From NCBI GenBank assembly GCA_963793425.1, contig CAWCAG010000005.1, positions 608,001-672,000 on the forward strand: a DNA stretch of 64,000 nucleotides. The letters are read 5' to 3'. Numbering within the stretch: the first letter of the stretch is position 1; the number at the start of each line of letters is the position of its first letter. The translations under genes and the position numbers were made by a program. Under the pieces are notes generated by a model that saw nothing but the letters and a program-made list of their open reading frames with translations, was not told where the DNA came from and searched no databases. This document shows positions 17,819 to 19,533 of this stretch, one piece after another. This DNA is from an uncultured cyanobacterium (GTDB taxonomy: Bacteria > Cyanobacteriota > Cyanobacteriia > Cyanobacteriales > CAWCAG01).

Positions 17819-18586
17819 TTACAAACTCTCCGGATCAATACCCAACTCTTGTAACTTGGCAGCTAATTTTTCGGCTTTTTCCTGAGCTTCAGCTACCTGT
17901 TGAGTTGCGGTATTAGCAATTTCTGTTGGCTCTTGAATTAATGCCCCTTCTAAAGTGAACCAACGCAACCAGAGACGATTTAGGCCCTTGTAAGCACCTT
18001 GCCATAAACCTAAACATAATTCTAATTCTGGTATTGCCCAGCGTCCTTGTCTACCTTCCCACCGTTCATAACGAGCGCCTACCAAGCGAAAAGCTTGCAC
18101 CTCATTAGTATAGCGACTGAAGACAAAATAGTAAGGAATGCCTAAAACCTGTTCGTACACCTGCCACTTCGTAGGAGGTTGATCAGATTGGTTAGTCGTT
18201 TGTCCTAAATCCTCTTTTTCTGTGCCAGGAGATAGCAATTCAACAGCAATAGTTGGTCTGATTACTTCTTGCCAAATTACATAACTCAAGCGCAAATCTT
18301 GATTCTCATACAAAGAAGTGACTCCTACCACCCCGAACCAATCTGGTCTTTTGTACCACAGAAGATGATTAACATCGTAGTAGAGATTAAGATCAGAACC
18401 AGTAAATACTCTCTCTGGGGGGTGGTTCCCTGGCTTAAAAGTAGACTCTAATAATTGCGGTTGCCAAAGATGGAATTGATCAGGCAAACCAGGTTCCTCC
18501 GGATTTTCACTCGGTAGATCATACATCGTCGGCAGGGTTTTGCGAGGAGACAGAGGAGGATCAGATTGAGTTGCGTTGTGGGGCAT
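17819..18586 (-). CDS. Uma2 family (DUF820) endonuclease-like protein
   Basis: LPTMYDLPSENPEEPGLPDQFH, KRPDWF, VELLSPGTEKED. Confidence 0.88.
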   Translation of the reverse strand: MPHNATQSDPPLSPRKTLPTMYDLPSENPEEPGLPDQFHLWQPQLLESTFKPGNHPPERVFTGSDLNLYYDVNHLLWYKRPDWFGVVGVTSLYENQDLRLSYVIWQEVIRPTIAVELLSPGTEKEDLGQTTNQSDQPPTKWQVYEQVLGIPYYFVFSRYTNEVQAFRLVGARYERWEGRQGRWAIPELELCLGLWQGAYKGLNRLWLRWFTLEGALIQEPTEIANTATQQVAEAQEKAEKLAAKLQELGIDPESL

Positions 18587-18641
18587 TTGAGTTACTTTGA
18601 AGAAGAGACATAAAGACGACCCATTTTCAGGATATCAACAG

Positions 18642-18670
18642 TTGACTAATTAATCAAACCAGAATAAAAT
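18642..18670 (+). promoter_or_regulatory. Near-consensus sigma70 promoter driving the structured RNA
   Basis: TTGACT (18642-18647)-N17-TAAAAT (18665-18670); predicted TSS ~18677-18678. Confidence 0.7.
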
Positions 18671-18677
18671 AGTTGCT

Positions 18678-18921
18678 ACGTACTTGTTAATTTGGTCGAA
18701 CAGCCTTGCAATCTGGACAGTGGATCGCTGTCCTTGCGCTTAGTTGATACACACATCACTAGCTTGCTCTTGACTGTGCGGTCATTCGGGTACTGTCGCT
18801 ATTACGGTTTGGTTTCTCAAGAAACTAATGAGCGACAGTACCCGCGACCGCTTGAGTTGAGCAATCTAGTCCTAGGGAGCTTACGAAGGGGAAACCAAAT
18901 TAACAAGTGCGCTTATTTTTT
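18678..18921 (+). ncRNA. Unassigned ~235-nt highly structured RNA (retron msr-msd-like architecture)
   Basis: Perfect 15-bp terminal IR (18682-18696 / 18894-18908); hairpin GGACAG/CTGTCC; long hairpin 18758-18870 with perfect 14-bp core; upstream promoter and downstream T-run. Confidence 0.7.
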
Positions 18922-18924
18922 CAC

Positions 18925-19533
18925 TCAATCAATAGTTTTAAAAGAGTCAAAGAAGCCTTCAATACTTTTAGGTAAATGTTGCGCTTTTCTGGTGAAAACT
19001 GCCTGTTGATAAATACGCCTATCTATGAGATAAAATCTGTAGATAGCAGTGTAATCATCTTCCAGTTTTAGAATATATTGAGCCGCCACAAAATCATCGG
19101 ATTCAATACTTTCTTTACTAGGAGCAGTTGGTGTTTCTGCACCTGCTACTGTGGGTCTAATTTCCTCAAATATCTCGTCAAATATCTCACTGGCCCCAGC
19201 TTCTTCTAAAGCATAAGGGAAGTAAGAATAGGCCATATAGTATCTTGTTTCTTCTTGGGAGCGATTAACCAAATAACCCAAAAAGTTAGCTTCTCCAACT
19301 GAAGTTGGTACACTTTGCCAACGACGAACAGGTTCCCCTGGCATCAAAACGACAAATCCCCCAGGGATGGATGTAACAGATCGCCAAATAGAAGATTGAG
19401 CAATTTGTAAGTTGTTTCCTGGGCTATTAATGTCTTGATTTTTTAAGGGAGTATAGCCGCTTAATAGTAGAGCTGGTACTAGCAAGGAAGCGCATATGGA
19501 AAGTTTTTTACCTTTGATAAGATTCGCTATCAT
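18925..19533 (-). CDS. Exported protein; paralog of 5792-6361
   Basis: QIAQSSIWRSVTSIPGGFVVLMPG, LPKSIEGFFDSFK. Confidence 0.65.
   Translation of the reverse strand: MIANLIKGKKLSICASLLVPALLLSGYTPLKNQDINSPGNNLQIAQSSIWRSVTSIPGGFVVLMPGEPVRRWQSVPTSVGEANFLGYLVNRSQEETRYYMAYSYFPYALEEAGASEIFDEIFEEIRPTVAGAETPTAPSKESIESDDFVAAQYILKLEDDYTAIYRFYLIDRRIYQQAVFTRKAQHLPKSIEGFFDSFKTID

Follow-up and report, generated by a model that had tools for sequence, protein, structure and literature searches.

The window analysed here, 64,000 nucleotides (nt) of contig CAWCAG010000005.1 (positions 608,001 to 672,000) from an uncultured cyanobacterium of the order Cyanobacteriales, contains a noncoding RNA (ncRNA) gene on its plus strand, which corresponds to positions C5:626678-626921 of the genome (G000). 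An earlier note, made from the letters of the window, had described a structured RNA gene with the msr-msd layout of a retron and no adjacent reverse transcriptase (RT), and had offered an orphan template served in trans, a phage/defence decoy RNA or a new class of small RNA as readings. The promoter-like site and the parts of the gene are as follows.

18642–18670, plus strand: promoter-like site, TTGACT (18642–18647), 17-nt spacer, TAAAAT (18665–18670), 10 of 12 positions matching
18678–18921, plus strand: whole ncRNA gene of msr-msd type, assigned by context to the retron type XIII family, about 235–244 nt including the T-run
18679–18696, plus strand: 5′ arm (a1) of the closing stem; its 18 nt are 94% complementary to 18894–18911, with one G-U pair
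18707–18738, plus strand: msr-type hairpin, outer helix UGCAA/UUGCG, inner helix GGACAGUG/CGCUGUCC, loop inside a GATCGC motif
18758–18870, plus strand: long msd-type hairpin (rod), about 113 nt
18871–18893, plus strand: 3′ segment CCTAGGGAGCTTACGAAGGGGAA, strongly conserved and containing a short stem of 4 pairs (helix 9)
18894–18911, plus strand: a2 arm of the closing stem, pairing with a1
18916–18921, plus strand: T-run after the closing stem, probably a 3′ end or terminator signal

Structure and boundaries of the RNA gene

The terminal inverted repeat, extendable to 18 bp with one G-U pair, the small hairpin GGACAG/CTGTCC at 18715–18733, which falls within the msr-type hairpin, and the rod of about 110 nt with a perfect 14-bp core were all present as the earlier note had read them. 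The core of the rod pairs 18787–18800 with 18831–18844, and its 12-nt outer arm is 92% complementary. Folding of 18678–18911 on the plus strand returned the described shape at −105.2 kcal/mol (z = −8.67), with none of 200 shuffled sequences as good. One predicted part did not survive: the second hairpin, TAGTTGAT/ATCACTA at 18741–18761, would compete for pairing with the rod's invariant ACTAG/CTAGT base, and only two pairs are predicted there in an alignment of 11 sequences, so that it was rejected as a conserved part. What remains is a pair of complementary end repeats, a1 and a2, enclosing one conserved short hairpin and one hairpin of 113 nt. According to Mestre et al. (2020, NAR 48:12632, PMC7736814), the source for statements about type XIII retrons in this report, a retron ncRNA consists of a1/a2 repeats, one to three short msr hairpins and then a long msd stem-loop.

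The promoter-like site lies where it had been placed, and would set the start of transcription near 18677–18678, just at the start of the a1 repeat. The match by itself proves nothing, because a scan of the 1-kb region for promoter-type sites gave two, against 1.8 expected by chance. The TAAAAT hexamer 7–8 nt before a1 is common to this copy and that of a genome of the same genus (G001), and stand-alone copies elsewhere carry a −10-like hexamer 6–8 nt before a1, an example being TAGAAT, which occurs in L074 and also in L079, there in the second copy. Upstream similarity to the copy in G012 is suggestive by eye and weak on alignment, and no promoter homology is claimed from it. At the other end, the expected run of T residues does follow the closing stem, and most of the 41 copies compared have a T-run 3′ of a2 even where an RT gene comes next, which suggests that the RNA is its own transcription unit. 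Such independent transcription may be what allows the parts of the system to separate.

The neighbouring genes are unrelated to retron parts, in agreement with the statement that no RT adjoins the element: a Uma2-family gene (17819–18586, minus strand) lies on one side and a 202-residue gene without a Pfam match (18925–19533, minus strand) on the other, with an OmpR-type response regulator further off in the window. The element was also said to be GC-richer than its flanks; the direction is right, and the excess is small (0.45–0.48 against 0.34–0.43). A 105-residue open reading frame at 18692–19009 was ruled out as coding, since homologues carry gaps of 1 and 2 nt and their changes preserve pairing, so that the absence of a credible open reading frame holds.

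No part of the window reached the gathering score of any Rfam 15 family, and at E values up to 10 over 18500–19050 there were only weak, sub-threshold matches to eukaryotic snoRNA and miRNA families, as expected if no known family, 6S RNA included, accounts for the element. The true 6S RNA of this genome (RF00013, 90.6 bits) lies about 220 kb away, outside the window, at C5:847072-847254 on the minus strand, and no RF00013 match occurs at the element. Both a DNA similarity search and a covariance model found a single copy in the 5.28-Mb genome, which rules out a miniature inverted-repeat transposable element (MITE) or other repeated mobile element.

Conservation, covariation and strand

A DNA search of relatives found homologues in 10 of 40, with 72–95% identity. 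In alignment A1 (11 sequences from 10 genera), the single-stranded blocks are invariant and the stems change by compensation. RNAalifold found changes on both sides in 31 of 68 pairs, and a structure set by hand, closing stem included, had 80 pairs, 89.2% paired, 41 of which had changed on both sides; no shuffle among 500 reached the observed covariation, and controls in which the structure was slid along the alignment were 35–40% paired. A covariance model, R1 (214 positions, 59 pairs), was built from a trimmed form of the alignment and leaves the outer half of a1/a2 unscored. When 43 copies were aligned to R1, 95.1% of cells were paired and 38 of the 59 pairs had changed on both sides (403 cells), against 34–46% pairing in slid controls and none of 500 shuffles as good. 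This alignment was fitted to R1 and is biased towards the structure; an independent MAFFT alignment gives the same picture. Covariation, which the earlier note had named as a check on an RNA gene, was therefore found in both alignments.

The closing stem (helix 1) is kept by compensation, with 12 of 20 pairs changed on both sides among the 11 sequences. Helices 2 and 3, which form the msr-type hairpin, are 94.5% and 98.9% paired in the same alignment, and pair 34-75 of this hairpin is GC in 29 and AU in 14 of the 43 copies. In the rod (helices 4–8), 25 of 28 pairs have changed on both sides among the 43 copies; its ACTAG/CTAGT base is invariant, its middle stem covaries and a sub-apical CGGTTTG ... 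TAATGA motif is conserved. In the 3′ segment, columns T216–G224 (TTACGAAGG) are invariant in A1; lying just 5′ of a2, this segment would be the region where reverse transcription starts under a retron model. G18695, at the 3′ end of a1, is invariant in 11/11 sequences (G30 in A1), yet predicted to be paired; it is a candidate for the branching G, although sequence cannot tell which G primes. The loop of the msr-type hairpin (18715–18733) lies within the GATCGC core of a GCGATCGC palindrome, with ATCG invariant in 11/11 sequences; this palindrome is common in cyanobacterial genomes.

The RNA is on the plus strand. Among the 43 copies, four pairs conserve a G-U pairing (UG in 42, UG in 30, GU in 26 and GU in 18) that would be A-C on the other strand, and the T-run follows a2.

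R1 matched 36 of 151 genomes in a sample of the order (26 of 80 genera) and 14 of 151 in a sample of the phylum, some of the latter being weaker matches in two families that lie beyond the order; these are samples scored with Infernal's stricter filters, in which "not found" does not mean absent. It also matched records titled Nannocystis and Pyrinomonadaceae. The window copy scores 237.7 bits over 18688–18902, fourth highest of the 43; it shares 95% identity with the G001 copy and has kept every helix.

Assignment to type XIII

In most relatives the element begins a few bases after the end of a long open reading frame, and often a further gene comes after it. Pfam identified these neighbours as a SWIM zinc-finger protein and a reverse transcriptase, and PADLOC named them in one locus (L025), where the gene order is WGR_XIII (1272.9 bits), SWIM_XIII (788.1), the element, a 302-residue gene and RT_XIII (657.7). 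This is the composition of the type XIII retron (RT clade 10) of Mestre et al. (2020), which comprises an ncRNA of its own distinct structure, an RT, a SWIM/winged-helix protein (cluster 114) and a HEAT/ARM protein with a WGR domain (cluster 216), the gene of the last often preceding that of the SWIM protein. The SWIM protein combines a DprA-like winged helix with a predicted DEDE transposase-like core, and the type as a whole shows a 0.78 correlation with host 16S, which suggests vertical inheritance (PMC7736814). Because the element lies between SWIM_XIII and RT_XIII genes in relatives, we assign it to this type. It follows that the proposal of a new small RNA class falls, since retrons of type XIII with a distinct ncRNA had already been described.

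The gene between the RNA and the RT varies. In L025 (L025:12140-13048, plus strand) it encodes the 302-residue protein, without a Pfam or PADLOC match, which was not found in G000 and was for that reason rejected as a core part; in L017 (L017:834-1499, plus strand) the position is held by a SRAP (SOS-response-associated peptidase) gene.

Partner genes at separate loci

The earlier note had proposed searching the genome for a retron-type RT with a VTG motif, and this search found an intact RT_XIII orthologue 530 kb from the RNA. Counterparts of the other two proteins were found on a different contig.

C5:1157337-1158737: RT orthologue, 467 residues, RT_XIII 636.5 bits, same contig as the RNA and 530 kb from it
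C9:699175-700848: SWIM protein, SWIM_XIII 812.4 bits (PADLOC)
C9:833599-836736: WGR/HEAT orthologue, 1173.9 bits to the L025 protein, 54% identical

All three genes are intact, without internal stops, and the L025 protein that the WGR/HEAT orthologue resembles is the one that scores 1272.9 bits to WGR_XIII. The RT is 73% identical to that of a relative (L011) and carries the motifs NAQPH, YADD and VTG, of which NAXXH and VTG are given as marks of retron RTs (PMC7736814); among solved structures its best match is the RT of retron Ec86 (E = 3.2e-43), and it has an extra N-terminal region of about 135 residues. R1 found no RNA copy near the RT, SWIM or WGR loci (L028, L033, L041), and the 640 nt upstream of the RT have no similarity to 80 other RT loci. 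The template is thus an orphan in position only: the part of the earlier reading that held it to be served in trans is supported by the cognate RT in the genome and by the co-occurrence described below.

Six further RVT_1 matches were observed in this genome besides the type XIII RT (C6:51946-52566, C2:3927-4547, C8:30399-31019, C6:9489-10130, C9:373253-373879 and C9:950149-950691), three in open frames of about 660 residues and one in a 357-residue frame. Uma2-family (putative restriction endonuclease) genes adjoin both the RNA locus (the gene at 17819–18586) and the RT locus (L028:275-859, plus strand), which may be chance in a genome rich in such genes.

Co-occurrence and linkage in relatives

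The RNA, RT and SWIM genes were counted in the same 151-genome sample of the order, which gave 36 genomes with the RNA, 38 with the RT orthologue and 34 with the SWIM gene. An RT accompanies the RNA in 36 of 36 genomes, and the RNA accompanies the SWIM gene in 34 of 34. The two RNA-bearing genomes without a SWIM match are G008, which is divergent, and G012, in which a contig ends 498 nt from the RNA. The position of the RNA relative to the RT in the 36 genomes was as follows, its distance being unmeasurable across different contigs.

Within 3 kb upstream of the RT, same strand: 14 of 36 genomes
Same contig, far apart: 4 genomes (G000, 530 kb; G006, 3.38 Mb; G077, 640 kb; G117, 28 kb on the opposite strand)
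Different contigs: 17 genomes, 3 of them ambiguous with a part at a contig edge (G079, G116, G144)
Downstream of a divergent RT: 1 genome (G008)

In cyanobacteria the RNA has the SWIM gene as its stable neighbour, with the RT often at another place. The distance from the 3′ end of the SWIM gene to the RNA is at most 0.9 kb in 30 of 34 genomes, in which the RNA starts 2 to about 150 nt after that gene (889 nt in G005); the exceptions are G000, G001, G060 and G121. The genus of the window is unusual in that its RNA stands apart from both SWIM and RT. Separation from the RT is not confined to single genomes, as in one family (f5) the two are apart in all six RNA-bearing genomes, by 3.38 Mb or on different contigs.

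An independent sample of named records gave a similar picture from the side of the RT. The RNA was found at 41 of 80 RT loci, always upstream and on the RT strand. Among the 65 loci that included the full 4 kb upstream, it was present in 38 (36 strong matches, one cut at the locus edge and one weak at 17.9 bits) and not found in 27; in five of five genomes tested from among these 27, the RNA was present elsewhere in the genome. It lies about 1.56 Mb from the RT in Chlorogloeopsis fritschii PCC 6912, about 1.19 Mb in Calothrix parasitica NIES-267 and several Mb in Moorena bouillonii PNG, with two further genomes likewise unlinked. Because in the non-cyanobacterial records, those titled Nannocystis and Pyrinomonadaceae, the RNA is directly upstream of the RT, the contiguous state is probably ancestral and dispersal derived.

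Several relatives carry a second, more divergent RNA copy (113–162 bits, with a longer hairpin, 241–260 nt), at loci L018 (G005), L019 (G017), L075 (G058), L079 (G074), L167/L168 (G152) and L157/L158. The distance between the two copies ranges from 60 nt to about 1.3 kb and reaches 5.8 kb in Calothrix parasitica. In G074 the SWIM gene is followed by one copy, and the other is found ahead of the RT; in the Pyrinomonadaceae records two copies stand in tandem immediately 5′ of the RT. The RNA may have become separated from the RT by a duplication after which one of the copies was lost. One RT locus (L119), from a record titled as a metagenome-assembled genome of Actinomycetota, shares 73% identity with the query, a closeness equal to that of the cyanobacterial loci; the title probably reflects a binning error rather than transfer.

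Discussion

We consider it likely that the element is the msr-msd template RNA of a type XIII retron, transcribed on the plus strand from its own promoter and served in trans by an RT that is encoded elsewhere in the genome. The mechanism that we propose borrows its steps (2′-OH priming and a complex of multicopy single-stranded DNA with an effector) from studied retrons, as described for Ec86 and by Mestre et al. (2020, PMC7736814). The RNA would be transcribed from about 18678 to the T-run near 18921, and pairing of a1 with a2 would present the short msr hairpin and the long msd hairpin. The RT, encoded 530 kb away, would bind the folded RNA in trans and prime from the 2′-OH of a guanosine at the end of a1, for which the invariant G18695 is the candidate. 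Copying of the 3′ segment (18871–18893) and the long hairpin would then yield multicopy single-stranded DNA of about 110–135 nt. Finally, the RT-RNA-DNA complex would act with the SWIM/winged-helix (transposase-derived) and WGR-HEAT proteins, which are supplied from their separate loci. The RNA family, its structure and strand, its co-occurrence with RT and SWIM genes and the unlinked layout are observations; the ends of the transcript, the priming G, synthesis of the DNA, formation of the complex and its biological role are extrapolated from them and from better-known retrons. Given intact genes and a conserved RNA, the type XIII system probably works with its parts unlinked.

A number of points weigh against this interpretation. 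The family was assigned by genomic context and not by a match to a published model of the type XIII ncRNA, and our literature search found no experimental work on type XIII retrons; a term search of the main text of Khan et al. (2024, bioRxiv 10.1101/2024.01.25.577267) gave no hit for XIII, clade 10 or cyanobacteria. Contiguity with the RT gene in one cassette, the RNA upstream, is not found in G000. Two RT-bearing genomes gave no RNA match, G109 and G067, the latter with a divergent, partial RT match. The minus strand folds about equally well (z = −8.79), so that folding energy alone cannot give the strand.

The evidence for expression is of a similarly qualified kind. Four RNA libraries from four studies hold contigs 80–99% like the element, which come from relatives; the records are 59–274 nt long, with one of 961 nt, and they cover 18695–18904 only, without flanks. 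One 274-nt contig has a depth of 11,676 and one of 233 nt approximates the extent from a1 to a2. The contigs are assembled and DNA was possibly present, so they cannot show ends or expression level, which also counts against our reading, and the flanks differ in relatives, so that their coverage says nothing on transcript ends here. We take them as a weak hint that the RNA family is expressed in relatives. Four sequencing runs (X1–X4) hold the stretch itself, with shares of 1.00, 1.00, 1.00 and 0.90 against 0.05 in the other 16 rows; X1–X3 are possibly from the source sample and X4 is from the same study, and none was counted as independent support.

The most serious challenge comes from linkage. 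The RNA lies next to the SWIM gene in 30/34 genomes and within 3 kb of the RT in only 14/36, which could mean that its primary partner is the SWIM protein. The RNA might then be a guide, scaffold or regulator of a SWIM/WGR module, perhaps derived from a 3′ untranslated region, with the RT as a looser associate; SWIM-linked copies do leave little room for a separate promoter. Yet the RT is present in every RNA-bearing genome of the sample, the Nannocystis and Pyrinomonadaceae records place the RNA directly upstream of it, and a1/a2 with a short and a long hairpin is the shape of a retron template (PMC7736814). In the genome of the window, moreover, the RNA is unlinked from SWIM too. We regard this alternative as unlikely.

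It is less probable again that the element is a decaying, functionless relic of a retron locus broken by rearrangement. Its position, apart from every partner gene and between two unrelated genes in convergent or divergent orientation, is what such a relic might show, but its R1 score is among the highest of the 43 copies, all helices persist in a copy 95% identical to that of G001, and promoter-like site and T-run are both present. The RT, SWIM and WGR genes are all open, and the unlinked state is stable across whole families, as in the six genomes of f5.

An element acting at the level of DNA, i.e. a recombination site, a transposon end for the SWIM protein or a MITE, would account for the terminal inverted repeats and for a minus strand that folds as well as the plus strand, and would find a natural partner in the DEDE transposase-like core predicted in the SWIM protein (Mestre et al., PMC7736814). 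We think this very improbable: the element is single copy, the earlier note saw no target-site duplication, strand-specific G-U pairs are conserved, compensatory changes preserve pairing and not sequence, and copies from relatives are present in RNA libraries. That it belongs to another known family (6S, SRP RNA, tmRNA, RNase P RNA or a riboswitch) is scarcely credible, for although the rod-like form, closed by a stem and interrupted by internal loops, is reminiscent of 6S RNA, Rfam 15 gave no usable match at the thresholds used, which refutes its families, and the 6S RNA of the genome lies elsewhere.

If the element is the template of a type XIII retron, the RNA family has already been described and what differs from known retrons is its arrangement, unlinked and widespread in cyanobacteria. 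Retrons were defined as contiguous cassettes, and the search for them was confined to the surroundings of RT genes (PMC7736814); finders based on neighbourhood would call RTs such as this one "ncRNA-less" and overlook the RNA. In the same study, action in trans arises only as an open question about effectors, for retrons without an associated protein. Our literature search found no description of a natural retron in which ncRNA and RT are unlinked; that search did not extend to the supplements of Mestre et al., which may list cyanobacterial type XIII members and their ncRNA coordinates. Engineered retron editors already use a template in trans (Simon et al. 2019, PMC6868368), and the layout reported here offers evidence from nature that a retron RT does likewise.

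Together with the lineage-wide distribution, this layout suggests that the type behaves as a system resident in the cell and not as a mobile defence island. We offer tentatively the further idea, which we hold to be possible rather than likely, that type XIII in cyanobacteria is a domesticated, vertically inherited system with its four parts at scattered loci, in which a free-standing and abundantly expressed RNA, closer to SWIM than to RT, templates DNA for a cellular task (e.g. genome maintenance, with WGR sensing breaks) rather than, or besides, defence by abortive infection. The covariance model and culturable carriers of the RNA, e.g. Chlorogloeopsis fritschii PCC 6912, are now available for work on type XIII function.

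Comparison with known systems

With 6S RNA the element shares a rod-like form of about 200 nt, paired ends and, in its case putatively, a promoter of its own; 6S RNA has a single central bubble, whereas the element has a multi-branch core and no RF00013 match.

The closest likeness is to the type XIII retron of Mestre et al. (2020), whose three protein families are the same as those found here, with very high PADLOC scores. Relatives of the element adjoin SWIM and RT genes, and a1/a2, a short msr hairpin and a long msd hairpin recur likewise; a putative likeness to the type XIII ncRNA consensus follows from gene context. The broad and partly lineage-wide distribution seen here fits the reported 16S correlation (PMC7736814). 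That study defines retrons as contiguous cassettes, whereas in G000 all four parts are at separate loci.

Compared with Retron-Eco1 (Ec86), the RT is a clear relative that shares NAXXH, YADD and VTG, and the template RNA has the same overall layout, but the RT differs from that of Ec86 and the other studied retrons by its N-terminal extra of about 135 residues. In the studied retrons (types I–VI) the ncRNA is immediately upstream of the RT and co-transcribed with it, unlike in G000, and those retrons sit in mobile defence islands, have a patchy distribution and use different effector proteins.

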